NCBI RefSeq assembly: GCF_001447785.1
Contig: NW_015174867.1
Span: 1-64,000 of the forward strand
Length of the DNA stretch: 64,000 nucleotides
DNA from: Gekko japonicus
Lineage: Eukaryota
Direction: 5' to 3'
Position numbers and translations under genes: made by a program. The notes under the pieces were generated by a model that was not told the DNA's origin, ran no database searches, and saw nothing but the letters and a program-made list of their open reading frames with translations. Positions 15,361-63,360 of the stretch are shown in pieces (position 1 is the first letter of the stretch; each line of letters begins with the position of its first letter).

Positions 15361-15450
15361 ATGTATCCTTAAAAAAAAAAAAGTAATGGTCTTTTTTGAA
15401 AGTGCATAATTCCCCCCCCCCTTTTATTTTCAAGGTGCAGAGCATGGAGA

Positions 15451-38221: not shown

Positions 38222-40159
38222 GACTAACTGTCAGAAAGTATAATTGTTTTGGTCTGTGAAACTGAACTGCATGTCTGTGCAAGAGCTTGTTCAGATTTGT
38301 GTGGTGGTGGCTTTATTTTAGTGACATCAGGTTTTACAGTCTCAGTTCTCTCCTTTTTCTTTGTGAAATGCATACTGCTGCCTTAATGTAGTTTGTACTC
38401 TCTGTGTTCCTGTCACAGACGGGATGTAATGGGCTGTGTACAGCCCTGCTCTTCAGGAGCAGCATCAGAGGCAGCAAAAGGTGTTACAGGGAAAGTAAAA
38501 CCTTTTACTCTATGCAACACTGAAAATGCTTCAGCTCTCTGAATCCATGTCGTGTTACATATGTAGGAACATGAGTCTTACTAGAATCATGGATTCCGTT
38601 TTTAAAAACGCCGGTTATAGTTGTCCATCATGGCAACATACCTACTGAATGGCACATTATTAGTTCAGTTCAAATCAGGACTTGTGNNNNNNNNNNNNNN
38701 NNNNNNNNNNNNNNNNNNNNNNNNNNNNNNNNNNNNNNNNNNNNNNNNNNNNACTGGCAGTGTTCGGAATGCAAAGGAGCCCAAGATCAATTGGTAGCAG
38801 TGGGTGGAGAGAACTGCTGGGACATGGGGCTGAGATGTTATTTACTGTTGTAAGAGCTGTCTTCACAGGTTTGGGGATTTATAAATCCCTATCAACCTTT
38901 CCAGTTTTTAGTTTTTTCTGGAAGGAGCCCCATCAAGACATGGCTTTATTTTGGGTCTCCCCCCCAAAAAAAATCTGAATTCTAGGGCCATTGTTTAGAA
39001 TTAGCTACAACAAAGAAGGAACCTGCCAGGGTTTGTAGGATGGGGTCACTTCATTTCTCCCTGTATCCTTTCCTTCACAGTATGTCCTTTCTTACCTCTG
39101 GACACCTTCCCATACAGTCTTTCCATGCTTTCTTCTGTGCCTTCCATTCACCAAACAACCTTTCTTCTATTTGACCCTTTCAGCTTTTTTACTTTATTTC
39201 CGACCCTTCTCCGCACTGGGAACCCAAAGCAGTTTACATAACTCTCCTAGGTAGCTTAGGCTGATTATGTGTGACTGACCCAAGGATACCTAGCAAGTTT
39301 CCACTGTAGAGTGGGGATTCATACCTAGATCTCCCAGATACTACTCTGAGATTTTTAACTACTACTGTACCAGCTGTCAGGTTTTCCTCCTTCCTTTGAC
39401 CTAGGAGCTGCTACCTGGGAAAAGTCTGCCCAAGAGGCAAAAATAGTGCAGTATGAAGCTACTTGTGTGAGTTCTGTAGTGGCCATGTCTGGCCTAGGCA
39501 AGTTATGTGGCATCAAATTGTCTGGAAGCCACAACGGCACATAGGTGATTTGCATGGTGGGAACTTGCCCAATGGTTGCTGCTGGACCTGACCCCAGAGT
39601 CCTCCCTTCAGGGGTGGATGGGGAGGCCAACACAGCCCTGGAAGGCCCTCTGCCTTTTACTGACAAACCAAGGTTTGAAGGCTGGCAGTATTGTGATTGC
39701 TAACAACCTCAGTAAGATACATTGAGATCTTTCTTATGGATACAGGTTAGGGATGGGCACAAACTGGCCAACAAACTAAAGTTCATCACAAATTTTGGTT
39801 GGTGAAGAACATGAACTTCCATGAATTTTGGTGCAGTTCGTGGCAGTTTGTGCAGTTAATAAAAACAGCTTGGAGCCATTTAAAGAAAACAGCCGAGTGG
39901 CAGTCCCTGGCACTCAGCTGAAACCCCTGCTTTCTGCTCCCCATAAAAAGCCGCAGGGAGCAGGGGTTTAAACTTTAAATGTCTCTGGCTTTAAGTATCC
40001 ACATATGGGGCCATGCTGAGAATTAGATATATGGACCAGTGGGGGAAACCTAAGGACTTGCAGGAGGCTTCTCATTTTCCCTCCCCCACTATTTCTTCCT
40101 TCCCTGAAAGCCCCCGTAGGCTCCTCCCTTCCCCCCCAAAAAAACCATCCCCCCATCTC

Positions 40160-40375
40160 CAGCTATATTTATTTCCGATCTTCCTCTACACTGGGAACCC
40201 ACAGCAGCCTGCATTGTCGTCTTCTGTATTTCATCTTCACAGCTCTGAGGTATGGTGGGGCTGAGTGTGCGTGACTGACTCAAGGGCCTCTAGCGAGCTT
40301 CCATGGCTGAGTGGATATTTGAACCTGGGTCTCCCAGATCCTAGTCTGAAATTTTAACTACTCCACTCCACTGGC
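40160..40375 (-). mobile_element. Squam3-like SINE (another at about 39190-39370)
   Basis: Reverse complement of the SINE family. Confidence 0.65.
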
Positions 40376-40794
40376 TTTTGTGGAGTGGCTGCTTTTGAAC
40401 AGTAGCAAGCCGCCAGTCCTGGGTGAGTCATGCAAGTTGCACAGCAGCAGGTTACTTAGTGGTTGCCATCACGGCAGGCCCCAGTGAGTCCTCCCTCAAA
40501 GGCCAAAGTAGCCCTGTAAGAGCCCTGCCTCCTCAGCACTGCCTTTGAGTGACAAAAACTAAGGACTGAAGGCCGATTGCCTATCAACTCCCAGAGTGAC
40601 CACTGAGGGCATTCATTTCTTAAAGCTACAGGCACTGCTGCTATTTCAGATTTTTCTGCAAACCTGGAACTTTTCTCAGCTTTATAAAAAGATCTGGCTT
40701 GTCTGTTCATGATCCCAGTCTCCAGCTTTAAGGATTCACAGATGAGGCCATGTTGGAAATTGGATATATTCTTGGGGGGGGGGGGTTGGGGTGG

Positions 40795-40999
40795 TGGTGT
40801 GCCTGGAAGTCAAGGTTGACTTCTAGCAACCTCTAGTGGGACTGGATGTTTCAGAGAGGTGGCTTTCTATTGCCTGCCTCTGCATCCAAGCCATGGTATT
40901 CCTTGAAGGTCTCTCTTCCAGATACTTCCCAGGGTTGGCCCTGCTTAGCTTCCAAGATCTGACGAGATTGGACTTGCCGGGGCTATCCAGGTCAGGGCT
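40795..40999 (-). mobile_element. 5S rRNA-derived SINE
   Basis: Reverse complement ATCTCGTCAGATCTTGGAAGCTAAGCAGGG matches the 5S rRNA core. Confidence 0.75.
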
Positions 41000-41239
41000 A
41001 GAATTAGAGAAAAGCATCTGTTACTGCAAAATGTACGCCTTTAATATTGAAGTTAACTGTAGAACTATGTAATACAGGACTGTGTAGAATTTCCTTCAAG
41101 ACACAGGGCTTAACAGTTATGCACAGTAATTAAGATACGTTCTAGTCTTCCACTGAAATTTGTTTCTATAATTTAGTACTGTGCAGACAGGAGTACAACA
41201 ATATTGTCCCTTGTGACTAAATCAAAACAATTCCATGTT

Positions 41240-42138
41240 CATTTTTCTAGACAAGCCATTTATTTGAAATGCCAACTATATGTAGGATAAAGTCTGTGTT
41301 AACATGCTTCTCAGCAACAGTAGAAAAATAGAACCAGTGAAAACCTTTTTACAACTGTAATGGTACTCAAAAGAGAAATGTATTGTTTTACAATGCATCA
41401 CACAAGACTAGAATTCAATTCTAGAGGTACCTAAATAAAAATACTATATTTTCTTAAAAAACCAATATGTACAGTTGAAGCGTAAACAAGTTTTACAAAG
41501 TACTGGTTATGCAGGTTGTAGAAAAAACACTTGCATAGGACATGAAGTTGGTTTTAAGAAAATTTCTGAGCCTTTAGCATTGAAGGCACTTGACTTTATA
41601 CCAGTAACAGCACAAGAACAATGTAACATCATGGACACTTAACACCTTCCAGGAATACATACAAGCACAGAAATACTAAATTAGTTTTTCTTCTTCAGCT
41701 TCACCCAGCATTTCACACATAACCCTTCACCATATAAACATAATCATTGTTGGAACAGTGCTACCTGCAGCCCATTTCAAAATAAGTTACATAAAAGATG
41801 AGGGAACAAAAAAACCCCCAGGGCCAATTAATTTTTTTTTATGCTTTTGGGGGGGGGGGGGGACTGCAATTAGGACTTGAGAAGGATCCTCTTTGATGTT
41901 AATTTTAGGGTATATTAGTTGCTGACAAATGTGCTTCCCAAGTGTTTGTTTTTTTAAATTCAGTAGGCATCCTGCCTGCAGCTACTCCCCAAAGCAGCAC
42001 TGCTCTGATTTCCAAGCCTAGTAATACTGGTGTGGATGAAGCAGCAGCTTCTCCCAAATGTTCTGGATCTTCTGTCACTGCTGGAGTAGCACATACTACA
42101 GTGGCTTCCACAAATGAAAAAACACAGAGAGAAAAAGC
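41240..42138 (-). other. 3'-UTR-like terminal segment of a minus-strand transcript (possibly the BTBD7 3' end)
   Basis: AATAAA on - at 41259-41264. Repeat-free, U-rich, with a TGTACATA motif. Tail-to-tail with UBR7, where BTBD7 normally ends. Identity is an inference. Confidence 0.45.
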
Positions 42139-42498
42139 CTAACAATCAAATGGAATAATGCTTGACTCATTTTTCAATTCCAATAATTTTCAATTAGCCA
42201 AAGACCTAAGGAGCACAACAAGTTTCTCTCTTATATACTTCACAAGAGCAAAAAAACACCCTTTACCCTGGATGTAAAGGCCTTTAAAAGGTTTCCAGAG
42301 ACTTAGTCATGTTTTTACTTGGTGCTCTGGCCCTTCCCCACTTTTTCTACAATTGCATGCTATATGGCACCTAACACGCATGGTTTAGTACAGAAGCCCC
42401 AAACAGGAATTTTAGAAAACTTCTGTTTAGACACAAACTAAGGGCAAGTCTTAATGATAAAAGCACTTTTAAAAGTTTATAAATACTCTGGAATAATA

Positions 42499-42729
42499 TA
42501 AAAGAGCAAGAGTCCAGTAGCACCTTAAAAACCAGGTGGCAGGGTATGAGCTTTCGTGATTCACAGCTCACTTCTTCACTTCCGTGAGTCACGGGTCACT
42601 TCTTCAGTTTTTTCACGGTGAGCCATGACTCACAAAAGCTCATACCCTGCCACATATTTTGGTAGTCTTTAAGGTGGTACTGGACTCTTGCTATTTTCTA
42701 CTGCTACAAACTAACACAGCTACCCATCT
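42499..42729. mobile_element. Penelope-derived insertion: inverted pseudo-LTR pair with 10-bp TSD
   Basis: GAGTCCAGTAGCACCTTAAA is inverted against TTTAAGGTGGTACTGGACTC. Ends CTAACACAGCTACCCATCT. TSD TGGAATAATA at 42489-42498 and 42730-42739. Confidence 0.75.
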
Positions 42730-44834
42730 TGGAATAATACAGGAACCTTCAGTTGAACAATAACAAGGCTAACAATAAAAAGTATGGCTGTAACAGGCAT
42801 TTGATATTCATCTTACACTCTACTACTTCAAGGCAATTCATTTTGTAAGCAAGTGAGACATTGAGGGAAATACTAGTTGCAAGCTTCAGTGATTCAAAAT
42901 GGAGCAGTCAATATATTTCATTACAGAATAATGAACTGATGTCTATTGATTCCATGTACAGGCATGATGCACACAGACATGTTCAACAAAGTGGTAAAAC
43001 ATCTATAAACTTACAGACCATGCTGACCACACATTTATTTAAAACATTTCTATGCTGCCTTTCCCACCCAAATAGGATCCCCAAGACATTACAACATTAA
43101 AGCAGCATTTAAAATAAGGTATATATAAAATATAGGCATACAAGCATACGTAACACAACCAGAGAGGAAAGCATTAAGAGTTACTGGGGATATGACAACC
43201 CCCCCCCCCCAAAAAAAAACCCTCCTCACCTGCTGGTGAAAGATGAAGGAATTCCAAAGCTTTGCCACTATGATCAAGAAGGCCCTTACAGACCACCTTT
43301 CATATGTATACACTGCTGCACATTTGATCTAAGAATCAACTATGGGAATACAGTTTCATCTTGGTGTGGACATAAAAATAAAAATGCTCATATGCTGCTG
43401 TAGTTTCATTTTACTTTCATAAACAAGATTAATTTAAGCAGACAAAACCCACAATCCAATAAAAGCTACTTTCTAGCCATATAACCACTATTATTAACCT
43501 GCCAAAATGTACAAGAAGGAACTGTCCACAAATATGCATTGTAAGCTATCATGGACCTGATCAGCACTTGGAAGGAAGATCCCAGGAAAATCCATGTAAG
43601 ATATTCAGACTTTTAACAAAAGTCTGGGATATAAGTACACCAAATAAAATGGCTGCCATTCATACTAATTTTGCACCTGCCAGCTGCTAAAGAAATGCAT
43701 TCTTTACTCTTACTTTCCTGAGAGAATCTATTAGCCACTTCACATACATGACAGTGCAGATATATAATTTTACTAAGAGAAATATACAATTCACAAATTC
43801 AGATTTACATCTTTGTGTCACAATCCAATGCAGATTAACTGTGCTTAGATCTCCATTGAGTTGTGGCATTTGAATGTGCGGATCACAAAACTGAAGTTTG
43901 CTATGACCATTCAAGTCAGCGTTTCTGAGAGCAAGAGTAATTTATTATTCATTGCTTTCCTATTAATCTTCTCTCCTGAATGTCAAGATGACAAAATATG
44001 TGTTTTCTGTAAGTTACTGGAAAAAATAGAGTATTATGAAGTTACCTTGTACAGTTAAAATTCATACTGTACAGGTAAATGTTGTATACTAAAAATCTCA
44101 AAGAATTTAGTGATCAACAAGAAAGTTATTCAAATGAGTTTTCGAAGCCTCTAGCAACCTGAGATTTTAAAAGGAAGTGTCATAGTATACCAAATAGCAA
44201 CAGGTGAGGAGGCCTGTATTCCCTGTTTCCCACTTCGAATGAGGTACAGGCAGCACGATTAGAACCACAAGGGAAAGTGAGTTACTGGCATAACAGCTAC
44301 CAGGCAGTAAAGCAGCACTGTTAATGAGCTCCATTGGGTACCTAGCTAGCCTGTGCTATTTAAGCCGCTATTAACAATTAAGCATCATTTTAATAAGAAG
44401 AATATTAAAGTAAGGGAAAGGCAAGGGTGTGATTAAGCTTGGCTCATTTTATATTCTCTAACTTTGGAGTAAAAAAAAATTAAGATCAGAACTTAGTGGG
44501 GGGCCCTTTTAAAGATACTGATTTCCTCCGTTCTTAATCTAGGCTTCAAGTTATGCTAATGAGATGGAGCTATCAGGATTTCAAGGACAGGAGAAAACCC
44601 CTGCAGGTGAGGGGCTAACCCTCAACTATAGAGCTAGCTAGGATCTTCATATGCAGGCGGGGCCATTAAAAACTGCATACCCAAAAAACCAAAGCTTGCA
44701 ATATTAAAATTATTTCCACGTTTTAAAAGTCAAGGGAGCCCTAGTTTGTTTGTTTGTGAGGGGGAGAGCTCTAAGCAACTTAATGCTTATGTGGGGGTGC
44801 CAATGTGGGGATACGGGGAACTGCTTTGCAGTGG

Positions 44835-46075
44835 CTGTCCTTCCTTTCTCTGTGGTTGGGGACAGAGGGTGGCACTTGGAGAGAGGGTCTCACCACGTTA
44901 TCCACTGGTATGTGGTGGCCCGCAAGGGGCAATCTTCTCCCCAATGTTATTTAATAACTATATGCACCCCCTTGTCCAGTTGATCTGGAGGGGTTGGGCT
45001 GGGCTATCACCAGTACGCTGATGACACCCAGATGTATCTCCTGATGGACGGATAGGACCCTGACATTTTGGATAGGGCCTTGGAAGCCATGGCTGACTGA
45101 TTACAACAGAGTTGGTTGAAACTTAATCCAGCTAAAATGGAGGTTCTGTTCCTTGGTCATGGGGTATGGGTTCGGGAATCCGACTCTCAGCCCTTGGTGG
45201 GGCACTGTTAATTCCTGCACCAATTGTGAGGAGTTTTGGAATGCTCCTGCATGCTTCCCTATCTATGGAGGCCCAAGTCACTACTGTTGCTAGGTCAGCC
45301 TTTTACCATCTTTGGCTGGTCAGGCAACTAGTCCCCTATCTTTCTTCCTGTCACCTAGCAACAGTGATCTACGCAATAGTCACTTCTAGGCTTGACTACT
45401 GCAACTCGCTCTACACAGGCCTACCCTTAAACTTGATCTGGAAGCTTCAGCTGGTACAAAATGCAGTGGCACACCTGCTGATTGTGACACCTATGCGGAC
45501 ACACATTCAGCCAGGGCTTTGCCAGCTGTATCAGTTGCCAGTCGAGTACTGAGCCAGGTTTAACGTTATGGTTTTAACCTTTAAGGCTCTATGTGGCCAG
45601 GGACCAACATACCTGCAGGACTGCCTTTCCCTATATGTTCCCTTTTCAGCCCTGGCCCTGGCCTGGTGGAACATGCTCCTGATTGAGATCAGAGCCCTGA
45701 GAGACCTGTTGCAATTCCACAGGGCCTGTAAGACTGAGCTTTTCTGCCAAGTCTTTGGTTGAGGCAGCGGACGTCAAATAACTTCGGCCTCCTCAAGCTT
45801 TAAGTCAAACTCTTGTGCCATTTAGAACTGCCAAAGTAGTGGATCTATCCCATCAAAGTATCTACCACCCTTCCTGGCCTTAGTGAAGTGGTCATAAGAA
45901 TGGATGCTAACTATTGAGAAGCTAATAGGTTTTTTAAACTGAGTTAATTATTCTTTTAAATTGGTCAATGTTATTTTAATGCTGCAATGTTTTAACTTAC
46001 TGTTGTATGAAATGTTGTAAGCTGCCTTGAGCCTGCTTGCAGGGTACGGCAGGGTAAAAATCCCTAAATAAATAA
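44835..46075 (+). mobile_element. L2-clade LINE 3' portion (degraded RT)
   Basis: GPQGAIFSPMLFNNYM, Y-A-D-D motif (TACGCTGATGAC), SRLDYCNSLYTGLP...KLQLVQNA, and a TAAATAAATAA tail. Confidence 0.85.
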
Positions 46076-46692
46076 TGCAGTTGTGTGGACTTCATTACGC
46101 TGCATGCCAAAATGCAAATAAGGAAGAAATACCTCCTTGTTGCCCTTTCAAGAGCCCAGAGGGCATGGAATATTCAGCTGAAAGTTGAAAGCAGTAAGAG
46201 TTATTGCAGACCAGATGCAGGAAACATGTTTGAGGGCAAAAGCTGAGTATGCTAGATCAGGAGAGGCAACAAATAGAGGAAGAATGAACAAGCGAGAAGG
46301 TAACAGGAAAACTAAGAATGGGGGCAGGGGACAACTCCTGCAAGACATTCTTCTGCAACTGCCACCCCATTGATTGAAAAATCAATTGCTAACAGTTCTC
46401 CAAACAAGTATTACAGCTGTTGGGGGGATACCACAGAAGCAGCAAAATGTCACAGGTGAAAATAGAGCCCATTCCTCCAAATGGCCTATACCTAACAGAA
46501 CTCTTTGCCCTCATGTACCAGAAGAACCCAAAAGTGTTTGCATGTCAGTGTGACAGGCCCTTTCTTGGAACCAAGGGGACCCACATGGCCTCTTATGGTT
46601 TTGGGGAATCAGGTTTGTTTAAAACTGTAAAGCTTTGCCTCAGTTATGTGATGTTCTTAACGTTGCAAGTGCAAAGACTTTAAGTTCACTGC

Positions 46693-47331
46693 TGTGAGGC
46701 AAGACTTGTGGTGAGCAAGAAGAACATGGAGATCACTGAGGCAGGAGTTTTATGCTAGTAACAAAGAAGAATTATTTATTTACAAGTCGGTTTTAAATAA
46801 CAAAATCAGCAGCACAGATCTCCAGACAGCCAGAGGAGAAACTAGCTGAGGCACATAAGTTTAAGCTAGTTATGGCTTCAGAGGGTGGTTTGAATTATCT
46901 TTAATATTTGAAGGTACGAAGAGGCTTTACCTGACAAGCCAAGGTTTGATCCTTTCACACACATACAGGATTCCACCGACAACAACCTATCCTTTCCCAA
47001 GAGCCAGAATAAATGGCACAAGGTCTGCTCATCACCAAAGACAGCCCTCACATTCTGTCCTCTCTCAGAGATAGAGCTAAACCACTCTCCCATGCTACCA
47101 GACATAGCTATCCTTTAAACTGTCTGCTCTTTTGCTGAGGCAAACCCAAAACTCTCACTATACTCTCCCCGAGACAGACCTGAACTGACTGCTGTTGTGC
47201 TTCCTTCCAACATTCCATTCCCTCTCTGAAAGGTGACTGGATGCTGGAACAGCACTCCTGTAGGCTCAGGGATGAAACAGCTGAGCAGCTGTTTTTCCAT
47301 TCAGGAGCAGGACAGCCTCCTATCTGTCACA
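46693..47331 (-). mobile_element. Possible solo LTR
   Basis: TGTGA...TCACA termini and a minus-strand AATAAA at about 46776. No clear TSD. Confidence 0.3.
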
Positions 47332-48015
47332 GTCAGCTACTTTAGTAGGTTACCTTTTATAATGGCAAGTAAATTTCAGTCAGATCTTGACTGTTCATTA
47401 ATGAAAATGTTGAAATGGCCCAAGACATGTAATTTTATGATGTGGATGATTACAGCAAAGCCGTTTTCTCAGCCTTGTGAAAGCAGAACTGCTCTCATGT
47501 TATTTGCCCTTTGCTACATTATAGTCAGTGCTGGTGGTCTGGGAAGCAAGTTGGCAATTCAGTAGGCTCAGGCAGGGCTTCCAAGCAGTAGTAGCTCAAC
47601 CTGCAAAGAGCAACAGACTGCTTTAACTTAACAGCTGGGCAGCTGTTGATAGGATTTTATTGGTTCCTCATGTCACTTGATTTGGCTGGCCCATCTACAG
47701 GAACAGTGCTGCAAGTGGCATATCAAGGGGGGGGGGCGGTCCGCCCCAGGTGCAGCTCAAGGAAGGCCTTTGAAGGGAGCCCTCGAAGCCAGTGTCATCC
47801 CGCTGCCTCTAGACGAATGTCTTCCCTTTTATTTTTAAAATGCAGTTCTGGCTGCAGCCACTAGGAGTGCAGGGAAGTCTGAGCATAGCAGTAAGCTCTA
47901 GGATCAGCTAAGCTTCTCTTTTCTCCAAGACTCAAGTAAACTTCCTTATCAGATCATGTTGATAGCTGCTACAGTAACTGCCAACCTGAAGGTCATTTTC
48001 TCCGATAGCCTAGCC

Positions 48016-48485
48016 CAGGTATGTTCAACAGGTAGATTGCGATCTACCAGTAGATCGCGGAGGGGTCAGAGGTAGATCACCAGCCCCACCCACTTGGTCT
48101 CACTAATGGTCTCACTAATGAGCAAGAGAAAAGTTTTAAAGTTTGTGCAAGAACAGCCTGGATCAATACTTGACCTACATTTAACACAAATAACTCTGAA
48201 TAAAAGTTAAAGAAAGTTATTGAGACAGTTAAAGAGAGTTATAACTCAATAAAAAAATGTTTGCAGTTCTTTCTGGATCTTCGTCTCTCTGTTTTGTTTT
48301 TGCTTATTTTGCTTACCAGTAAATGATAGAAGGTGCATTATAAATGGGGGGGGCGGGGCGGTGGAACCCAAATTTAGTGGGTTAAAATCTAATTTGAAAC
48401 TTTTTTTTTCATGGTGTTTTTTTCATCACCGGCAATTTTGGCCGTAAAAAATAGATCACTACCTGTTCGAAGTTGGACATGCCTG
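48016..48485. mobile_element. hAT MITE
   Basis: TIRs CAGGTATGTTCAAC / GTTGGACATGCCTG. Perfect 8-bp TSD GCCTAGCC. Confidence 0.85.
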
Positions 48486-49853
48486 GCCTAGCCTATCTCT
48501 CTCCCTTTCCTTGTGCCCAGCTCAGCCAGATCTTGCAAAGCTAAGTTAGGGTGTTGCAGCAAGATAAAGCAACCTTTCTCTCTTAATTTCTCTCCTCTTT
48601 TCCACACGTTTTCCATTCATTTCTGTCTTCCTTCACCTAATTTTTCTGTGTCCCCCTCCCCCTTTATTTTCACTTCTTGGTCTCAAGACCTAATAATCCC
48701 TATCCTGCTTGGTGACAGAATGTATTTAAGAGTAGTATAGCAGCAAACCGTTGTTAATATTATGCTCGGTACTCTGTACATTGCATTGGTTCTGCTGGGG
48801 TGCAGAAATGACCCCTTTCCGTTTCTCTGGTTTGACTTTAGTTATTTGAAAACAATGGAGGATGGGGGCACCTTCGTTGGGGGGCAATGTGTTTCTTAAC
48901 ATCCAGTCTGGTGAAGCTTGCAATCACTATGTAGTGATGCTTTGGCTAGTGTTACTAAGTTAGTACAAAGGCAGACTCCTAACTCCCAGAAATGCCTTGC
49001 AGATGTTTGGGATAGTCATTTCTTGGGCTGTAAAACGGAGAACAGAAGCCCCCACCCCAAGTGGTACAACGGAATTTTTTTTTTACTGCCAAGTCACAGC
49101 TGAGTCAATCAGTCAATGTTTATCATGGTAAAAAAACCAGCATAAGATCAAAGCATGTCTTAGAACAATCTAATATTTATAAAACTTGGAGCTCAAAAAA
49201 ACAATTACATTAATTTCAAACATTTCCGCTTTCTAACTGCTATAGTACAGAATTTTGCTACTGCATAAGTTACAGATTTCTGCATATCTTCTAAGAGATA
49301 TCTCCAGAGTACTTCAGATCAAAAGTTCATATAATACTTTAGTGGTATGAATTTAGAGAGGAGTGGAAAAGTCGCAGCTGACTTATGGAGATCCTGTAAG
49401 GTTTTCAAGGCAAGAGGTGGGTTATCATTGCCTGCTTTCACACTGGCCTTTCTTAGCTTTTGAGATCTGATGAGGTCAGACTATCCTGGGGTTATCCAGA
49501 TCAGGGCTAGGCTGAGTGTAATGTGACTGGCCCAAGGTCATCCAGCAAGCTTCCATGGCACAAGTGAGGATGTTGGGGAAGTTCGCCTCTCGGTTCGAAA
49601 TTGGATTTCCCAGATCCTAGTCCAACACTTTAAGCACTACACCACACTGGCTCTTGTGATGGAATAGTGCACTGGAATTTGATTTTTTTTTTTACTGACA
49701 TGAATCTATATACAAAGTTAAATACAAGAAATTTTTCACTGTCTGCATTTTTTTTTTTTGCCACTGAATACAAAGTTTGGGTCCAGTGGCACCTTTAAAA
49801 CCAAACTTGCTGCTTCAGACCAACACGGCTACCCACCCAACAAGATTTTCAGG

Positions 49854-49893
49854 GTATAAGCTTTCGAGAATCAAAGCTCCCTTCCTCAGATAC
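49854..49893 (-). ncRNA. Minimal type I hammerhead ribozyme motif within a Penelope remnant (about 49770-49894)
   Basis: Minus strand GUAU-CUGAGGA-A-GGGAG-CUUUGA-UUCUC-GAAA-GC-UU-AUAC: CUGANGA and GAAA cores, stem II, 4-bp stem I, palindromic AGCU stem III. Confidence 0.6.
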
Positions 49894-51330: not shown

Positions 51331-52163
51331 GTAGTGAGCCAGCAACTGGCTACACCACTACCTACCAGTGAAATCAAACAGCAAACAATAGTGCATGTCA
51401 CATATATTGTACACATATAACAACTCTGTTCCAGGTTCCTATAAACAGAGAAACAAGAAGAAATAACACTGTGGAGTAGAAAATAAGAGTTGTTCCCAAC
51501 ACATTACTATTGGTATGTGTCCATGAAACATATGTTCATTCATTTACACATTCCACCAGTCAAGACAACATGAGAACATATTGGTTGTTCTAAGATTCCA
51601 CTATGCAGGAGTCCCCTTAGTAGGGCCAAGAAACAAAGATGACTTTTCATAAGATAGCTCAGTGGGGCTAGAGGTATACACATACATATAAACAGAGAGT
51701 TCAGCAATGTTGCTAAAGCTTGTCAGATGGAACTGGGTGCCAACTACCTTTCTGCAGGTTACAACTCACACAGGAGAGGGAGGAGATTCCCTTTCCACCA
51801 CCCTTTCCACTACTATGCCTGATGAGGACAGAGAAAATATATTTTTACTGTATTTTTACTGTATGACTGATGACATTATTGTAATTAAGTGGAATACTCA
51901 AAAGTGCAAATGAACCAAACATGTCTTGAATGCATCTGTGTGCGGTGATGAAGATGGAACTGACCATTTAAAAAGTCCCTTTCATAAGAATGTGATGCAC
52001 AAGGAAGGGTGTTTTCTTGCTAGATACCAGTCATATTGATTCTCAAAAACAAAGTAACCAGAAAATAAATATCAATAACTGGCTAAACAGAAAAGTTTGT
52101 CACTCCTTCCCTTCCTCAATTAAAAAACTGATGATGCCTTTGCTACAAGAATTCCCCCTTCTC

Positions 52164-53254
52164 GGCGTGGTTCTCAAAGTCCGAGAGTGGAGGAAGGAGA
52201 TGTTTTCTCCACACTAACAGAGCTGCTTCGGCCCATTCATGAAAGACTCGATGGCCTTAACCAATTGATTGCTGCTTCAAACCAGAGCATGGCAAAACAG
52301 CAACAGCAGATCACCGAGCTTCTGAAAAAATCGATCCAAACTGATGAAAAACTTAAAGAGACCACACATGATGCTAAAAAGCTGAAGAAAAGAGTTGGTC
52401 TGATGGAACAAAAGCAGGATCTACACGAAAGGAAGCTATTGAACCTACAAATGGACAAAGCGAATAAAACCCTTAGATTCCAAGGGGTGGCTGAGACGAC
52501 AGGAGAAATTTTGAAAGATGTGGCAGCTGAGCTAATCGCTCTATCGCTCGGCATTGCAACGGCTGAAGCGCATGCAGAGATAGAAGTGACATATCGTTCT
52601 TACTCTAAATATATTAAGCAAAACAAACTGCCGGGCAAGATCGTGGTCAAATTTCTCCGACGACAGACAAGAGATGATATTCTCAAAGCAACAGCAGACA
52701 AACCCCTGCAAATGGGATCAGCAAGTATCAGGGTCCTTAAGGACGTTCCATTTGAGGTTCGACAGAAAAGAAAAGCGTACAAAGAACTCATCTCAACACT
52801 TCAGATCAACCAAATTCAATACTCCTGGCTTTTTCCAGAAAGGGTCCAATTCAAATATAGAGACAAAAGAGAAAAAATCGACTCGGTGTTAAAAGCAGAA
52901 GAATGGTTGAAGCAATTCTTCGGACAGAAAGAGGAAGAGCAGCAAGACGGAGGAGGCCAGGCAGCTGACCTGGAAGAGACGGACAGAGACCTACTTGGAG
53001 CAGAAGGAGGCACGGCCAGAGAAGCATATGACTTGCGGCTAAGAGTTGCCAAATAGCACTTATGAACTAAAAAGACTTATGGATGAGCTGGAAGAAGTCT
53101 ATGTGCACACTGAGAAGAAATTAGATATACAACAAAATGGACTAACTAATCTCCTAAATTCCTTGACTTAATGAAAGCATTAATCTTTATAACTAACTGC
53201 ATACTAACTGTTAATGACCCTACTTTCTTGGGTTTTTAGTTATAGTGTGAAAAA
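52164..53254 (+). mobile_element. ORF1-only L1-derived retroelement (HAL1-like) with 17-bp TSD
   Basis: TSD AAGAATTCCCCCTTCTC at 52147-52163 and 53255-53271. Intact ORF1 frame, about 190 nt of 3' sequence, short A tract, no ORF2. Confidence 0.85.
52187..53056 (+). CDS. LINE-1 ORF1p-like RNA-binding protein (5'-truncated; first ATG at 52289)
   Basis: Coiled coil, then RRM (TLRFQGVAE...PGKIVVKF...RDDIL) and CTD (KDVPFEVRQKRKAY...YSWLFP), typical of L1 ORF1p/Transposase_22. Confidence 0.8.
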   Translation: MEEGDVFSTLTELLRPIHERLDGLNQLIAASNQSMAKQQQQITELLKKSIQTDEKLKETTHDAKKLKKRVGLMEQKQDLHERKLLNLQMDKANKTLRFQGVAETTGEILKDVAAELIALSLGIATAEAHAEIEVTYRSYSKYIKQNKLPGKIVVKFLRRQTRDDILKATADKPLQMGSASIRVLKDVPFEVRQKRKAYKELISTLQINQIQYSWLFPERVQFKYRDKREKIDSVLKAEEWLKQFFGQKEEEQQDGGGQAADLEETDRDLLGAEGGTAREAYDLRLRVAK

Positions 53255-54856: not shown

Positions 54857-55376
54857 AAGCTAGTTAAGTATATTTCAGCATAATAAAATGGTATGATATT
54901 TCAATGGATGTCCTCAAGACCAAACTTGCACATGATAATTAACACCAGGATGTAACTACAAGCTGCAAGACATAAGATGGTTCCTATGGAGCGCTGTCTA
55001 GCAACAACTTTAAATGAAAAATCTCATCAGAAGAGAACGGAGCCATTCCAAAGTTGAAACAATGCAACATAATTGAGTTAGTGAACTCTGTTCAAAAGCT
55101 GCATTACTAAGCATGTGTGATCAATGGGGCTTTTGACTTTTTCCCCTAACAGCAGACTCCACTCTATAGCAAACTGTTTTGGAAGTATGGAACTGATTTA
55201 GAAGCAAGCCATTCACAAAAAAATACGTCAGGAGGCCTGCTGGATGTGCAAGCCTCTAGAAATGCCTATGTTTTCTGAATTGTTACTTCCCAGGGCCTGC
55301 TAGCAGTTCTAACCATGTTCATATTATGCCCGTCCTGACAGTGCAGGTCAGTAATTCCAGTATTAATACCTCCAAG

Positions 55377-56315
55377 CAGGCCCGGAGCTAACGCGGGGCC
55401 CACCCTCCTCCCATTTCTTCTGGGCCCCCTCCCTCCTGGGCTGTCCCCTAAGTGCCTCAACTTACCACCTGCGCGCCACTTTGCACTCTGACTGAGAAAC
55501 ACCTCCACTTAAATCTTCTTCGGACTGCAAAGACCTGGGGTGGAAGACAGCCACACCTTTTTTTAACTTGGGGGCGTGTAATTTATGCAGGATGTCAAAA
55601 GCGGGAGGGGGGGAGAGAAGTGGCCTTCTGCCAAGCTGGGGATGCCACAGTGTGAAATTGACCAGCATGCTGAAACTGACTGGAAACCTCAAAGTCCTTT
55701 GCGAAACAAACACAAAACACAACAAGATTTTCTGGGAAAGGAAACAAAAGGAAAGGGAGATCGGAAGTGCTGAGCCAGAAAATACTTGGGGGGGGGGGGG
55801 GCAGACTAATTTTTAAAGTGCTTTCCTGGGCATCAGGCAGCTTCAGTAGACCTGGGTAAGACTCTGCTCGGGTCAGGGTTCCTGCAGAAATGGGGCCAAG
55901 TCAAAGGCAGAAAGGGAAAGTAGTTTAAAAAAAATGGAGAAAAGCTGAAAGGAAGGAAAAGGTAGCAGAAATGAAGGGACTGAAACGAAGGTGTTGAGGA
56001 AAGGGGACATCTCAGAAAGGGGGTCACCAGAAGAAAAGAGAAGAAAAGAAAAGACAAGTGTTTGGAGTGGCCGAGAGAGCACGTGGCTTGCCGCCACCGG
56101 CAGAGGGTTATCTATATTGGTGTAGCCGTACTTGCTAGCTATCCTCTTGGCTTCGGGGAGCCCACCACTTATCCTCACCGCCCAGTGGCTGGTGTATACG
56201 TGAGTCCTGCAGCTGCTGGGCATTACCCCCCATCCACCTGCTCTGGAAGTTTTGATTAAATTAGCTGCCACCCCCCCATGGCCCCCTCCCCAGAAAGTCC
56301 CTAGCTACAGGGCTG
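55377..56315. mobile_element. hAT-type non-autonomous transposon carrying captured host-gene fragments
   Basis: TIRs CAGGCCCGGAGCTA / reverse complement CAGCCCTGTAGCTA (11/14). 8-bp TSD CCTCCAAG / CCCCCAAG (7/8). GC-rich heterogeneous interior. Confidence 0.75.
56113..56211 (-). pseudogene. PCSK5: Captured fragment of PCSK5 exon 1 (proprotein convertase prodomain start)
   Basis: CRTHVYTSHWAVRISGGLPEAKRIASKYGYTNI versus recalled human PCSK5 CRTRVYTNHWAVKIAGGFPEANRIASKYGFINI. No other PCSK exons seen in the window. Confidence 0.85.
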
Positions 56316-57689
56316 CCCCCAAGCATCTCACTATTTCATAAATTCTAGAATCTCATATTCAGAAATTAGCCAAAACCAAAGGCATAAAGATTACCTAGAT
56401 TGTTGACATTATTCATGTAACTCCAAACATTTATTCCTTAAAGAACAAATGGTGGTTTCTCAGTTAAGCCCTTGTTTTAACAATTCTGTACTTCTAAACA
56501 AGCATTTTACATCATGCCTGATGATACTGTCTCATAAACAATAGTATATACTTCTGATAACTCCAAGAAAATACAATACAAATTTGCTGGAAGCAAAATT
56601 ACAAGAGTTTTCATACACACCCTATAGAATCATACTGAGCTGTGAGTATACAGTGCAAAAAAAAATGACCCACATAGCAAATTTAGTCATTTTACTTGTT
56701 ACATCAGTTCTAATAGAGAGAGTATGTTAAACAAAATATACCCTAAAAATCAATGGCTGGATGCCCCAGATCTATTTTGCCAATGGAGGTGTTTTTCTCT
56801 TGCAAAAGGAGCCCCCCCCCCCAAAGTAAGCACCTGCATTAGGAGATTAGGACTGCAGGATCCAATATAGTAGGATTCAATCCAGTAACTCCTAAGAGCT
56901 GTTACCAAGTCAAGACAAGAACCCCTAGACAGAGTTGGGGGGGAAACCCTAGCAATTTAAGATGGCAAAAATGACACCACTGATAAAAAGATAGCAGACA
57001 TATCAGAGTTTTAAAAGTTCTTGCACTTCATTTTTCATATACCAGTCCTCGAACTACAATACCATGTTTGACTACTAAAGAAAGGCAGTAAGAATACACT
57101 AGGTTTTTTGATTACAGAGGCCTGTTTAAATTTTCTACAGTGGTAGATTTTCTTTTAAAAGCCTCCCCCCCACTCAGGTCTTGGCTATATTCAGATGACC
57201 ATGAAGCCTTGGAAGACTATGGGCATATACATTCCCTACTGTCTCTACTCAAGTACTCCTCAAGAGTGCTCTTGAGGAGCAAAATTAAAAACATTTGTTG
57301 TTATATCCAAATCAAGCTCTCTAACAAACCATGACTTGTTTCTTGCACATAAATAATTATTTGTAGGTAAGAAAAAATACATTTGCTAAAGAACCCAATA
57401 AGGAAATCACAACAAACTGTAGTTAATTTTAAATCAAAAATATTTTCATTATCCATGTATTGGGGGAAGTTAACAGAGAAGTCAGTAGCTTCTATGGATC
57501 TGTTCAAGATGTCTGGATGATGATATAGGTAACTACTCTGAGTAAATAGTTATCACCAACCAGGAAAAAAACTCTTAACACTTATAAATGTGTTAATGCG
57601 GTGACCAAACCATTCAGAAACAAATACAGGCGAAATCAGATGCACGGATAAATGGAATTACTCTGATCATTATAGAAAGATAACTAGTA

Positions 57690-57918
57690 TAGGATAGGAG
57701 CTAGAGTATTGGGCTGAATCTGGGAGACCCAGGTTCAAATCCCCACTCTGCCATGGAACCTTGCTAGGTGACCTTGGGCCAGTCACACACTCTCAAGCCT
57801 AACTTACTTCACCAAGTTTGCTTTGAGGATAAAATGCAGGACAGGAGATTGATGTAAGCGACTTTGGGACCCCATTGGGGAGAAAGGTGGGATATAAATG
57901 AAGTAAATAAATAAATAA
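57690..57918 (+). mobile_element. Squam3-like SINE
   Basis: CAGGTTCAAATCCCCAC B-box, SINE body and (TAAA)n tail. Confidence 0.75.
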
Positions 57919-60399
57919 TTCATTGGTATGTTAATTTTCCTAACTGACTGCTTACTGCATTTGGGCTTAAAAGATAAAATTTGTATATACATTCCATAAG
58001 GTTTTTAAACTATTACAGCAGTATGAAAAATACATCAATATGCCAGGAAGTGGAATAGAACTTTTAGAAAGTCATGGCACAAGCACAAATGATACAGGGT
58101 CATAGAATACCAGTGGAATATATATATTCCAAGACTTCAGTCTTTCATACCATCTCTTTTATGCAATTCACAATTAAATATATATTGGTTAATTTTCAGC
58201 ATATGAGCAACAGATATGAAAAAAGACCCTTAACTGCACCCTAAATAGCTTCTGCCAGTATTTGTATATAACCTTTCCTCCTTATTCAAGGAGCTTATGG
58301 ATGTTAACAAATTAAAATAGAAAAGACTTTGTAAAAGCCATTAGAAACTATAAAACTTATAGAATATCAAGTAGTTACTAAAGCAGGACATCCAACATTT
58401 ATCCCATAAACACAAATCCAAATAAAAATGTTTTCATATTTCTAAAAGAAGTCAATGTTAGAATATGGCAAGCCCTTCTCAGGAGAAGGTTCCAATGCCA
58501 AAGTTCCTTGACGGAGAAAACACTGCCCAAAAATCTTCACACACTTAACTTCTTGGCTAGACAGAATTAAGAGCAGGGCCTTCTTCAATATCCCTCACAC
58601 AGTGAGCTCCAACTCAAGCACTTTGCTACTTCATTACACTTTACTAGTGGGACGCCCACAGAATAGTTGGATGATACTGAAAAGTGGAGTAGGATGGGAT
58701 GGGTGATTTTATTATTTTGTTACTCCTGGTTATCTAAAGGTCTGGAGATGGTGTGCCTGCCTTCCCAGGGAAACGCACACAGTTTTCTCTGCTGATTTTT
58801 CCTTATCTCTGTATACCCAAATTCATTCTTGATACTTTATTGCTGGACTTGTTAAGTCATTGGCACCACTCTCAGAGAAAGGAGTACTGGTTGCTATGCA
58901 TGCAAATACATCTGAAATGAGGATAGGGGTTAAACGAAAGGTTTAATTTAATTTAATTTCCATTTAATTAAAATTCCTGCTTAAAAGGTAAACAATACTG
59001 TTCCCCTATTTGTGCTAACAGGAAAGGGACATGGCAGGGTAGCTGCAGATTCTTTCCCTTCCTTATGACACTTCTCACATCCATAGCAGTAAAGTAGTCC
59101 CTACTCGCAGCATCATGGGATACTTAAAGGTGCAGCATTAAATCAATGTTGGTTAACAATTCATTGACAATATGTGGCATACAAGATGACACTAAAGTCA
59201 TTGTGTTTGTAGCAAAGTTTGTAACAACCTCCACTACCTAATAGAATTCTTCCCATATTTTTCTAGGATTCACACAGGACACTCACTCATGTATGAAACA
59301 TTAGTTTTATGAACATTTTACTGTAATTTAATGTATACCCGTGCATGTGTCCACACATATACATGGAAAACTTCTTGTTCTACATTGGCTCTTCTGTGAC
59401 TTCTGTAGGGTTATACAGAACACATGCTTTTAAGACTTTCATTGTTTGTCTAAATAGTTCCAAACTCCACTCCTGAAGATGTCTCAAAATAATGAACTAA
59501 CCAATTCACCTGTTAATAATTCAACATTGTCATTATTTATTTGTAAAACTTAAGCAATAAATTTAGGCCACAATCCAGAGAGCAATTCATTGACTTAAGC
59601 ACCACCCAAAGGAGTGGACTGACATCTCTTTTTCAAGCAGCAGCCTCCTGCTCAGCATGACAAAGTGCTTTAGAAACTCAAGGGAATTTCCAAAGCAGTT
59701 TGGATCAATGCTGCATTGGGGAGGGGTGTATATTAAAAGAAAGAGGGGAAAACAACAACCAGAAACTCTGCTGGGCAATAACCTAACAGAACTACGGCCT
59801 TAAATTTTTGGCACTCAAGGCCCACACTCCTAAAGATTTTCTATTCTGCCTATGAATGCTGTTTTCACAAACAACAAGCATTTACCTATGGGATTACAGC
59901 ATGACAGAGGTGTAGTTGACTCATGGGATCAATTAAAAGGGTCAGCATTTATTGCTTGCTCCTTTTAAATTATCCCAATGTTCAAACATCACTGCATTTT
60001 AATGACGTACCAAAAACATATATTTTTATGCTATACTTACAGGGCAAGTACAGATCAGCATTGCCTACAGAAGTATTCACCTGAAACAAATGTTAACTTT
60101 AAAAGAAATATGAAGTCAGAAGAAGTTCAGCTGGAGCATTCTAACCCTATCTATACAAAGTATAATATTTCACAGTCTGATGTTTAGTGAACAAGCAACT
60201 TACACATGTTTAAACAAAAAAATGCCTAACTATTAAATGAAAAACTGATACTAAAGTACACACCTGTTTTCTTGTATAATTCATCAGCACCATTATATTC
60301 ACAATCAAAATAAAAGGAGCATGAAAATAAACCTTTGCAATTTAAAAAACAAATTTAGGGAAACCCAATTTCCAAACAGACAGAATTTGTTATACTTAC

Positions 60400-60459
60400 A
60401 GAGTGTTTCTCCTGCTGGCCCATAACTCCATGGTTTGCTGGGATTGCAAGAGGTTTCAT
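60400..60459 (-). CDS. RAPGEF2: RAPGEF2 (PDZ-GEF1) alternative first coding exon
   Basis: ATG at 60459. MKPLAIPANHGVMGQQEKHS followed by donor TCT|GTAAGT (phase 0) equals the recalled first 20 aa of human RAPGEF2. The next exon (LPADFTKLHL...) was not found in the window. Confidence 0.85.
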
Positions 60460-61254
60460 AATGAACAAATATATGCTGAACTGAATGTACACATCATGTA
60501 CCAATTTCTCATGGATAGTAAATCACCCTCTACTGCATTAAATTAAACAAAAAAATCAAGGAAAAAAACCAAGCCAAGAGCTCAAAGCATTGCTCACAAA
60601 ATCCTTCACACTTGTAGTGCAGAAAAGCAATCCAAACAGCAGCATTTGTCTCCATTTTTCTAACACTTGAAGTCTTAAGCGTGCAAGGATGTAAAGTGCC
60701 TGGCAACACCATACATATCCAGCATTCTTTTACAAGAATGAGAGCATTCCCTGAGAGCGAAAGGGAGGAAAAAGAGGAGGGGGGAAAAAAAGCTAAAATG
60801 GCTGACTGCACACAGACTCCCTCAAAAAAGCTTAATACAGTATTATATTAGTCAGGATGCAGAAACCAGCTTCCTGCATTCAAGCCAAGCCTTGTTAATA
60901 GTCCAGTTTAATTTGCAATCACACTACAAGAGATCCCCTCACCCCCCATTAAAAAAAAAAATCAGGGCAGAGCATGTGAATAGGGACCTCCTCCCTGGCT
61001 GCTAACGATGCTGACAGGGTGACCAGTGATCTCTGTTCCACTCAACTAACCAAGTTCGCACAATTAATCCAAGCAGCATGACATTGACGGACATTTAATT
61101 TAATGATGCCTGTCCCTCATATTCAAGAAAACCATGTTTACCACCAAAAGAGTCACTAAGGGAGGGGGGAACATAGGCACATAACAGAGAGAAAAACCTA
61201 GAGAATCATGAGTCTGAATGTAATACGCCAATATAATTACGTTATTGTGCTTAC

Positions 61255-61267
61255 TTTGGAAGACCAT
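61255..61267 (-). CDS. RAPGEF2: Candidate RAPGEF2 alternative first exon (MVFQ-T...)
   Basis: Optimal Kozak GCCATGG, ATG GTC TTC CAA A|GTAAGC. Splices in frame to the internal acceptor cccag| at 60438/60437, giving MVFQTNHGVMGQQEKHS. Confidence 0.55.
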
Positions 61268-61727
61268 GGCTGCAGGCAGTTGGCATAGCAACGCACAAGG
61301 AAAGCCATTTCCTGGGTAGAAAGAACGCTTCCTTTTCTAAATAAAAAATTCCTCTTACGATACAAACGGCATTGCTGCTTCCTGCAGAAAGCAAAGACAC
61401 TGTAGTCTGTCTCTTAACCTGCACACAGGCACACTCAATGCAGTTCTAATGATGTAAGTGGATCTCTTGCAGCCTCCCTCCCTCTCCCCCTATACATCGA
61501 AATATCCAACTCAAATGGAAGACATTCCTTGTGGCTCGCCCCCTCGCCTGCTTAACTATTTCACTCATTAAGGTACAGATGGACAATTCAGATAGAGTAA
61601 CAAGCGCTTGCCTGTATTATGTCAGCTTCTGTAGGTCAACCAAATCCCAGAGGGGAAGGAATCCATTGATTGCTGGCTCCAGTGAATACCACTGAAGGCA
61701 GAGTCGGAATAAGGGGAAAAGACTTAC

Positions 61728-61754
61728 TTGAACAAGCTCAGAAGTAAATATCAT
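61728..61754 (-). CDS. RAPGEF2: Candidate RAPGEF2 alternative first exon (MIFTSELVQ)
   Basis: AAAATGA context, 9 codons, donor CAA|GTAAGT in phase 0 like the MKPL exon. Confidence 0.35.
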
Positions 61755-63360
61755 TTTTCACCAAGGTGAATATAAAGCAAGGGTGTTTGCTGACACCTCC
61801 TCTTCCCCCTCCCCCATCCAAAAATAATGTTGCGGCAAAGCTGAATATACCTCTATCAAGTATTTATTAATGGCACACTTGACAAACTCTCATAGACATA
61901 CAGGTTTGATACTGTTTATGCTGTAGGTAGTGAACTAAATGAGGAATGGTCATAAATCTTCTCAGTCCTCAATTTGCTTAAATCCTAAACTTAGCTAAAG
62001 GTACCATTTTTACTAAAATTGTCTAATTCACTCAAATTTCACTAATACAGACCATAGAACATAAGGCTGGAAAAGGCAAGGCACAGGTCGTAACTTCTAC
62101 AGTTTCAACATGTCTCTTTAAATTATACTTCATTTTTTAAAACAGAGCAATACCTAACCACTCCCATGTAAAAAGCAGCTCTCCCCAACCCCCACCTTGG
62201 TGCATGAACTAAGCTAAAGGACACACTCCAGCAAAGAAACTATTACATGTATATATTACAAACACTACAAGCAATAGGAATCCATGCTGTTTTTATGCAA
62301 GTCATAATGAAGGGAAGCCAGTAATATCTAAGAGAGAGAGTAACGGCTGGTTTTGCCTTTGATTTTCACCACCAAATTTGACCTTTTTTATGTGAACAAT
62401 GTGTTTCTGAATCTGGAGTCCATATATGTTCTCAACACCTTTGCAGGATTTGGAAAAGAGTGGGAGGGGCAAACTGCTCATTTCTGCTGCTGCAGTAAGG
62501 ATTGAATCTGTATATAACAACCTTACACATGCATATGCACTTCTGAATGATCTAGAAAAGTGCTTAAGAAAGACTGCAGCTGTCTCTACAAGACACATGC
62601 AGCCTCAGTTAATCTAATCTACCATACAGTGATGCTTTGCTAGCTATACTGCAGGTCACAGAGGCTAAAAGCTCACTGAAAATGCAGACCATAAGCCTAT
62701 TTTTACAAAATCATTGGTGTTTTACATTTAGCATCTCTTACTAATTTAGATGATTCCATTTTGTGTTATTGTAATCATGTGTCCTTTATTTTTTGACCCA
62801 TATACAATAAACTACTTCCAGGAGCATTCAAAATTATGGTGAGATGTAGATTGAAGCAGTAGTTCTTAAACTGACTCTAGATGCAGCTGATGGTGTTATA
62901 TGCATCTCCTTTGAACAATGGTTTTCTTAACTACAAATCCTTTCCAACATACAATCTACAAACTGAGGGAACCCTGCCCCTGTCCTGGACTCTCCAGGTG
63001 TAGGATGGTGGGCAAGGCCACCAATGTTGTACCGGTTTACTTCTTCCCATACTCTATGTTTCTGCTGCCTTTTTGCCCCAGACCCATATTCTACCTTCAT
63101 GCCTCAGGGGACACATCAGACTAACCTGGTGGTTTTTGAAATCATAGTGCTACATGAAACAATTAATCACAACACATCCATAGAACACTTCAGCAGTGAA
63201 TTCCACTAGAAAAAGTAGCCACAGCATGAGGGAAAGTCTGGAAGTTGCTTCTCTTACTGCATGTTCTGGCTCCCTGAGAATTCATATTCCAACACTGAAT
63301 CAAAGCAACCCACAGGTATCCTCTTGGTCAGCTAGAACAAGCAAACTAACTGACTGAATT

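Follow-up and report, generated by a model that had tools for sequence, protein, structure and literature searches.

Neuronal first exons of RAPGEF2 beside UBR7 in a Gekko japonicus scaffold: a probable assembly mis-join

The genes LYSET, GON7, UBR7 and BTBD7 form a contiguous block in human, which we take to lie at 14q32, with RAPGEF2 at 4q32. Chicken chromosome 5 carries ITPK1-UBR7-BTBD7-UNC79 (PMC12814845, accessible text). The Gekko japonicus sequence analysed here (64,000 nucleotides, hereafter "the window") exhibits RAPGEF2 sequence past the 3' end of UBR7, where BTBD7 is expected. Does this adjacency exist in the animal, or is it a product of the assembly?

The left part of the window contains the following features:

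15451..15846, + strand: LYSET (TMEM251) coding region, intact, 131 aa
22880..23406, - strand: GON7 (exon 1, 23406-23296, entering the N gap 23264-23295; exon 2, about 22988-22880)
23904..36599, + strand: UBR7 coding region, intact as far as mapped
36600..38240, + strand: probable UBR7 3' UTR (AATAAA at 38216; predicted end)

LYSET matches the Pfam TMEM251 family (E-value = 5.7e-73), and its protein is identical at 130 of 131 residues to the gekkonid records P0537 and P0541, and at 128 of 131 to P0399 and P0401. GON7 exon 1, cut by the N gap within a G/C run, exhibits a match under the curated cut-off (E-value = 3.3e-5) to Pfam DUF4611, presumably the GON7 family; exon 2 was identified from the translation. 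UBR7, named from the cluster of P0248, exhibits a Pfam zf-UBR match and ten exons by tblastn (56-93% identity), plus a divergent one recognized by eye near 30.9-31.1 kb. Its probable 3' UTR contains no repeat with a second copy within the window. The N gaps of the window are located at 7132-7188, 23264-23295 and 38687-38752.

Two RAPGEF2 exons were identified on the right, on the opposite strand to UBR7:

60400..60750, - strand: RAPGEF2 MKP (MKPL) alternative first exon (coding part 60459-60400; candidate acceptor at 60751, predicted from sequence only)
61255..61308, - strand: RAPGEF2 MAF (MAFL) alternative first exon, coding part, 18 aa

The coding part of the MKPL exon, MKPLAIPANHGVMGQQEKHS, is followed by the phase-0 donor GTAAGT and is identical at all 20 residues to positions 1-20 of RAPGEF2 isoforms from turtle and narwhal (tblastn, E-value = 7.5e-14). 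This confirms the intact minus-strand exon reported in the initial annotation, as well as its match to RAPGEF2. The MAFL exon (61308-61255), which that annotation had not named, reads MAFLVRCYANCLQPWSSK followed by the phase-0 donor GTAAGC; all 18 residues match the N-terminus of 13 members among 120 screened from the RAPGEF2 cluster. Both donors directly follow whole codons, so that either exon could join the LPAD exon, and the named proteins do run on into LPADF. MAF and MKP are the internal neuronal first exons of the RAPGEF2 exon-1' cluster (PMC5611689, accessible text). This cluster is located inside an intron of the long MASYVD isoform, in which 181 residues precede LPADF. The earlier designation "RAPGEF2 promoter/first exons" is thus correct as to the first exons; the promoter concerned is not the main one but that of the internal neuronal cluster.

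No further part of RAPGEF2 was found. With three RAPGEF2 proteins as tblastn queries, nothing in the window besides the MKPL exon scored better than E-value = 0.08. With 120 proteins (E-value<0.01), all 39 matches fell on the MKPL exon, the LPADF exon being absent from the whole window; a further 120 (E-value<1e-3) matched only the MKPL and MAFL exons. The stretch from 38.7 to 60.4 kb yielded no first exon of the MLP or MIVV type. These searches bear out the initial statement that no other RAPGEF2 exon lies between the MKPL exon and UBR7. That LPADF is missing does not point to truncation, as the intron past these exons may exceed 22 kb; in human we take it to be about 36 kb.

The reported lack of a BTBD7 coding ORF holds as well, on indirect grounds: absence was judged from open frames, domain profiles and short motifs. 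The last coding exon of BTBD7 is long (>200 aa). The longest minus-strand open frame past 36.6 kb is 143 aa and lies inside a hAT-type element. Within 38753-64000, none of 87 frames (minus strand, at least 55 aa; plus strand, at least 75 aa) matches a BTB, BACK or RAPGEF domain, and two C-terminal motifs and one N-terminal motif of BTBD7 are absent. Weak Pfam matches (HBV X, PTS-HPr, RTA1 and others), all under cut-off, were dismissed as chance. The Rfam search returned no match.

The RAPGEF2 exons exhibit no decay: not one of the 38 residues has changed, and each GT donor is kept. Over about 94 constrained sites, the chance of zero change is P = 0.06 at 3% neutral divergence and 0.009 at 5%. 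These values suggest that the MAF and MKP exons are in use or were very recently copied. Loss of Rapgef2 is embryonic-lethal in mouse (PMC5611689, accessible text). As the two exons form the internal neuronal promoter of a gene that mice require, and none of their 38 residues has changed, any break is unlikely to be old or destructive. A breakpoint truncating RAPGEF2, as initially suggested, would split such a gene and leave undecayed exons behind; the one plausible version of that suggestion is an extra copy of recent origin.

Comparison with another gekkonid bears on the question. LYSET and RAPGEF2 are on different chromosomes in the close relative Heteronotia binoei, on sequences of 200,515,534 bp (P0541) and 126,895,027 bp (P0480), respectively, a comparison of the lengths of the carrying sequences rather than an alignment, in which differing assembly versions could mislead. 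The RAPGEF2-UBR7 adjacency is therefore not common to all gekkonids. In P0480 the protein runs from MASYVD through ECTKQQ into LPADF, so the intron holding the MAF/MKP exons is unbroken there. The sequences carrying RAPGEF2 and LYSET or UBR7 also differ in length in all nine further tetrapods compared by eye in single-contig rows (LYSET in Bombina, Discoglossus, Rhinatrema, Rana, Spea, Notamacropus and Erinaceus; UBR7 in Neovison and Manis javanica). RAPGEF2 is presumably on chicken 4q; our literature search returned no work placing it on chicken GGA4. Searches by title and abstract start found nothing on a RAPGEF2/BTBD7/UBR7 adjacency, those on RAPGEF2 in gecko chromosomes gave unrelated work only, and those on gecko misassembly or synteny with chicken gave work on Zootoca only. 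In Gekko hokouensis, genes of chicken chromosome 5 correspond to GHO2 and those of chicken 4q to GHO7 (PMC4524605, accessible text).

In our view the window likely represents a chimeric scaffold of a draft, presumably short-read, gekkonid assembly, in which a mis-join set the start of RAPGEF2 beside UBR7. The left part would be the normal LYSET-GON7-UBR7 block, belonging to the linkage group of chicken chromosome 5, perhaps with the far end of the BTBD7 3' UTR. The right part would be a piece of RAPGEF2 intron from another chromosome, carrying the internal neuronal promoter with both first exons. The assembler would have linked the two at a small gap or via a repeat. In the animal, BTBD7 would come after UBR7, and the MAF and MKP exons would splice to LPADF on the chromosome of RAPGEF2. 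The separate chromosomes in H. binoei support this reading, as do the differing sequences in the nine other tetrapods, the unchanged exons and donors and, with RAPGEF2 presumed on chicken 4q, the GHO2/GHO7 split in G. hokouensis. So does the position of the break, which would part all promoters and start codons from the body of a gene lethal when lost in mouse, and so does the draft quality of the sequence, with three short N gaps and several repeats in the interval. The synteny break of the initial annotation is present in the sequence as assembled, and a mis-join is its best reading; the N gap proposed there is one of several candidate points for the join.

The join probably lies somewhere in the interval from about 38.2 to 59.5 kb; of the three candidate joins listed here, the N gap is just one:

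38687..38752: 66-base N gap, first candidate join
41025..44630, - strand: AT-rich, repeat-poor stretch delimited by eye, ending in ATTAAA (41045) facing UBR7
44638..46070, + strand: decayed LINE remnant with a reverse-transcriptase trace (right end by eye), second candidate join
52124..53056, + strand: open 310-aa LINE-1 ORF1, no ORF2 frame behind, third candidate join

The LINE remnant, which we take to be L2-like, exhibits a Pfam RVT_1 match under the cut-off (E-value = 0.005), and part of it matches a copy at 27086-27206. The ORF1 matches the LINE-1 ORF1p 2YKP (phmmer, E-value = 3.7e-5; Atlas 0.94). Target-site duplications of 12 repeats were all in the chance range (5-11 bases), no chimeric repeat being demonstrable, and strand skew and GC content marked no switch point. 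Among the 24 sequencing runs listed in a search with 38753-48700, 20 cover part of this segment and two at least half (X1, 0.70; X2, 0.63; both labelled "DNA?"), shares that are silent on order and expression; none of the 24 is an RNA run covering the segment.

Judged by eye, the stretch 41025-44630 is possibly a far 3' UTR remnant of BTBD7; if so, the join would lie inside gap-free sequence. Between 36.5 and 47 kb the minus strand carries 18 AATAAA/ATTAAA hexamers, of which this ATTAAA is one. A motif test gave p = 0.415 for TGTA and 0.12 for other motifs in 41025-42480, and 0.10 and 1.0 in 42715-44630; it is non-discriminating, with TGTA at p = 0.01 in the UBR7 UTR control yet p = 0.02 and 0.0 in intronic controls. 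None of five published human BTBD7 UTR primers, which may not match gecko sequence, has its best match in 41.0-44.6 kb, and two other published BTBD7 primers match nowhere in the window at up to 3 mismatches. One of the five reached p = 0.017 against shuffles and was rejected, its match lying inside the LINE-1 ORF1. Two of three seeds of BTBD7-linked miRNAs occur in the stretch but are uninformative, each 7-mer occurring 3-12 times per strand across the window.

Unrelated to the synteny question, the hAT-type element at 55377..56315 exhibits terminal inverted repeats alike at 11 of 16 positions and flanking 8-mers alike at 7 of 8. It encloses a proprotein-convertase pro-domain fragment (56223-56104, minus strand; Pfam S8_pro-domain, E-value = 7.1e-6, 27 bits against a cut-off of 25.5; Atlas 0.91) with no match in the PDB. 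In the Pack-TIRs (PMC8277862), a host-gene fragment is likewise enclosed by hAT-type ends with an 8-bp repeat flanking them; the main text of that paper contains neither "lizard" nor "anole".

That the adjacency is real and young, the RAPGEF2 neuronal promoter block having been copied, or the LYSET-GON7-UBR7 block moved, across chromosomes in one gecko lineage, has a minor but appreciable probability. In the form of a recent segmental duplication or insertion, which we regard as unlikely, the promoter block would have been copied just past UBR7, in or near the BTBD7 3' end, with the original RAPGEF2 whole elsewhere. The block would measure at least 4-5 kb and extend off the right end of the window; its promoter would fire towards UBR7, and transcription could end at the ATTAAA at 41045. 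Several observations that speak against a mis-join favour such a copy: the sequence from 38753 to 60400 is free of N; the locus is able to duplicate, as Podarcis and Zootoca (lacertids) carry a second "LYSET-like" copy; and PCR confirmed as real 41 (83.67%) and 58 (84.06%) of the synteny-break regions examined in short-read bird scaffolds (PMC5411781, accessible text), a base rate that weighs against reading such breaks as artefacts. That no repeat could be demonstrated as chimeric likewise speaks against a mis-join. LINE remnants in the interval could also act as recombination substrates. However, 38 undecayed codons and two intact donors allow only a very young copy, an orphan copy being expected to decay; the insertion would disturb the BTBD7 3' end, and it is absent from H. 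binoei as far as sequence lengths tell.

Movement of the LYSET-GON7-UBR7 block (45 kb or more) into a RAPGEF2 intron would keep RAPGEF2 whole, continuing left of the window, and would account for both the perfect conservation of the exons and the absence of LPADF from the whole window. We find this very improbable. It needs a multi-gene inter-chromosomal move where fusions dominate (PMC12820338, accessible text), the arrangement is not so in H. binoei, and the GON7 terminal exon on the RAPGEF2 strand, together with the minus-strand ATTAAA, could shorten RAPGEF2 transcripts. A true translocation, separating the first exons of RAPGEF2 from LPADF and splitting or displacing BTBD7, fits the sequence as assembled but is extremely unlikely: the gene body would be left without promoter or start, for a gene whose knockout is lethal in mouse, and exons severed from their gene should decay, which the MKP and MAF exons have not.

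A mis-join would be a mere warning that the RAPGEF2 and BTBD7 gene models and the synteny taken from this scaffold would be wrong. If the adjacency were real, sequence would have moved between chromosomes within a linkage block that has persisted from amphibians to mammals, a rare event in a group dominated by fusions; a new neighbourhood would also have captured a neuronal promoter, a case open to testing. If also young, the adjacency would have a brain-specific promoter firing towards UBR7 in place of the BTBD7 3' end, and a new MKP/MAF-led transcript could end near 41.0 kb.

Relative to the conserved ITPK1-LYSET-GON7-UBR7-BTBD7-UNC79 block, the window holds LYSET, GON7 and UBR7 arranged and oriented as usual and, to the extent mapped, intact, but no BTBD7 coding sequence within 27 kb past UBR7, RAPGEF2 sequence lying there instead. 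Relative to the neuronal exon-1' cluster (Rapgef2-MAF and X5-MKP of NCS-Rapgef2, PMC5611689), both first exons are present, with protein identical to the mammal and turtle isoforms and phase-0 donors; here, in contrast, the shared LPAD exon 2 is not in the window. The synteny breaks of short-read bird scaffolds resemble the present case in that a switch occurs within one scaffold, with a gap and repeats near. Those breaks were mostly real on PCR (PMC5411781, accessible text), whereas the gecko switch falls within an essential gene and brings two linkage groups together.

Two coding first exons of RAPGEF2 lie on the minus strand:

60459-60400, minus strand: MKPL (MKP) exon, MKPLAIPANHGVMGQQEKHS followed by GTAAGT
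61308-61255, minus strand: MAF exon, MAFLVRCYANCLQPWSSK followed by GTAAGC

The first 20 residues of RAPGEF2 isoforms from two turtles and the narwhal are the same as the MKPL peptide, which confirms the placement and identity given to this exon in the initial annotation. The MAF peptide is identical to the N-terminus in 13 of the 120 RAPGEF2 cluster members screened. Searches with three, then 120, then another 120 proteins revealed no further RAPGEF2 exon in the window, in agreement with the earlier claim for the sequence before the 3' end of UBR7. The two exons exhibit no change over 38 residues and two donors. The probability of no change at the ~94 constrained sites is 0.06 at 3% neutral divergence and 0.009 at 5%, so that the exons appear to be either functioning or very recently duplicated. 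A possible non-coding leader exon is suggested by another GTAAGT donor that precedes the MAF exon at 61727 (minus strand), together with a strong acceptor ahead of the MKPL exon at 60751 (minus strand).

In the accessible text of PMC5611689, the common exon 2 of RAPGEF2 starts with LPAD, the upstream exons form two families, and brain is the only tissue where MAF and MKP transcripts are detected. In the long isoform (MASYVD...), 181 residues precede LPADF. The MKP/MAF site is thus an internal neuronal promoter, located in a long-isoform intron, rather than the outer start of the gene. By itself, the lack of an LPADF exon over 22 kb says little, because the intron may be longer; the corresponding human intron is about 36 kb.

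In the left block, LYSET is intact; its 130/131 identity to gekkonid records assigns the window to a gekkonid gecko. A CpG-rich stretch at about 700-1000 (by eye; position 15435 noted with it) is likely the LYSET promoter, ~14 kb from the coding exon. GON7 exon 1 matches DUF4611 and enters a 32-base N gap (23264-23295), which probably hides more than 32 bases, since the visible coding parts of GON7 give ~72 residues versus the 96 positions of the Pfam model. Ten UBR7 exons were mapped against a 425-aa relative (cluster named UBR7), and one additional divergent exon was read by eye. A LYSET-UBR7 read-through is annotated elsewhere: the primate protein model P0243 fuses LYSET residues 1-69 to UBR7 from exon 2 on. 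The lacertids Podarcis muralis, P. raffonei and Zootoca vivipara (protein records P0013, P0562 and P0055) have a second gene, "LYSET-like"; in P. raffonei, the sequences carrying this gene and LYSET are equal in length, which suggests a lacertid duplication at the locus.

The length of the sequence record carrying each gene served as chromosome label in relatives. In Heteronotia binoei, LYSET is on a 200,515,534-bp sequence and a 1575-aa RAPGEF2, continuous across the intron holding the MKP/MAF exons, on a 126,895,027-bp sequence. The LYSET/UBR7 and RAPGEF2 sequences likewise differ (by eye) in 9/9 further tetrapods with single-contig rows; this count excludes fishes, small scaffolds, rows with more than one contig or named "LYSET-like", and also Xenopus laevis, which has two subgenomes, and Pleurodeles, whose rows may come from two assemblies. 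RAPGEF2 is on 4q in chicken. As far as the accessible portions of these papers go, chicken chromosome 5 carries ITPK1, UBR7, BTBD7 and UNC79 in that order (PMC12814845), a salmon candidate-gene list includes PRIMA1, UBR7, ITPK1B and BTBD7 (PMC6786245), chicken chromosome 5 and 4q genes map to GHO2 and GHO7 of Gekko hokouensis (PMC4524605), and inter-chromosomal changes in reptiles are mainly fusions (PMC12820338).

The putative join falls within an interval that starts at the probable poly(A) signal of UBR7 (38216), ends at the RAPGEF2 promoter region (~59.5 kb, by eye) and has the following features:

38687-38752: 66-base N gap, join candidate
44.6-46.1 kb: decayed LINE, join candidate
46690-47250: LTR-like stretch (by eye), minus-strand AATAAA at 46780, no clear target-site duplication
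48016-48485: non-autonomous hAT-type element, perfect 8-bp target-site duplication
51052-50893, minus strand: exon-like segment of 160 bases, long pyrimidine tract with AG acceptor, GTAAGG donor; no match to RAPGEF2 or Pfam
52124-53056, plus strand: open LINE-1 ORF1 (310 aa) without ORF2, join candidate
55377-56315: hAT-type element of 939 bp, TIR 11/16

The LINE-1 ORF1 belongs to an element that has ORF1 only or an internal deletion, or else to a collapsed repeat. A join inside either hAT-type element is unlikely, because the flanking 8-mers still match (8/8 at 48016-48485, 7/8 at 55377-56315).

The reported lack of a BTBD7 coding ORF held in an indirect test: beyond 36.6 kb no minus-strand frame is longer than 143 aa, none of the 87 frames scanned hits a BTB, BACK or RAPGEF domain, and three motifs, which we take to be characteristic of BTBD7, are absent from the window. 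The stretch at 41.0-44.6 kb resembles by eye a minus-strand 3' UTR ending at ATTAAA 41045, in the position and orientation presumably expected of BTBD7. A UTR motif test gave no discrimination; seed sites for miRNAs linked to BTBD7 in the accessible text of PMC6381672, PMC8140396 and PMC12240168 were uninformative as a marker, and BTBD7 primers in the accessible parts of PMC9152417 and of PMC6710852 with its supplement did not match the stretch. A BTBD7 identity would place the join to the right of 44.6 kb, where the sequence has no gap; otherwise the simplest site would be the N gap. The gap proposed initially as the mis-join point stays a candidate, beside the two LINE sites.

The best reading of the sequence, which we hold to be quite probable, is a chimeric scaffold: the assembler would have joined sequences of two chromosomes between the UBR7 3' end and the RAPGEF2 promoter region. 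Of the options first listed, this one is best supported, by the separation in H. binoei and all nine tetrapods, although the N gap is only one possible site. Three short N gaps interrupt the window, one of them in a G/C run of a coding exon, a pattern that would be typical of short-read drafts. Against a mis-join stand the lacertid LYSET duplication, the lack of gaps right of 38752 and the finding, in the accessible text of PMC5411781, that PCR confirmed about 84% of the synteny breaks tested in short-read scaffolds of birds.

The component parts are known genes, and the RAPGEF2/UBR7 adjacency is probably not genuine; our literature searches found no paper on it. A recent duplication, for which the lacertid LYSET locus offers a parallel, is rather unlikely; with 38 residues and both donors unchanged, the copy would have to be very young. 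It is very improbable that the UBR7 block is nested in a RAPGEF2 intron. A true split of RAPGEF2 is hardly credible, because every promoter would be cut from the gene body and mouse Rapgef2 knockouts die as embryos (PMC5611689, accessible text). Should long reads span the join, the adjacency would reflect a recent transfer of a neuronal promoter between chromosomes, to which we give a small but appreciable chance.

The hAT-type element at 55377-56315 contains ~40 codons that match the proprotein-convertase pro-domain at 56223-56104, minus strand (Pfam PF16470, E 7.1e-6, above cut-off; Atlas 0.91). We take this fragment to resemble PCSK5 exon 1. The element is a candidate for gene capture in gecko, resembling in its hAT-type structure with a convertase fragment the Pack-TIRs described in the accessible text of PMC8277862.
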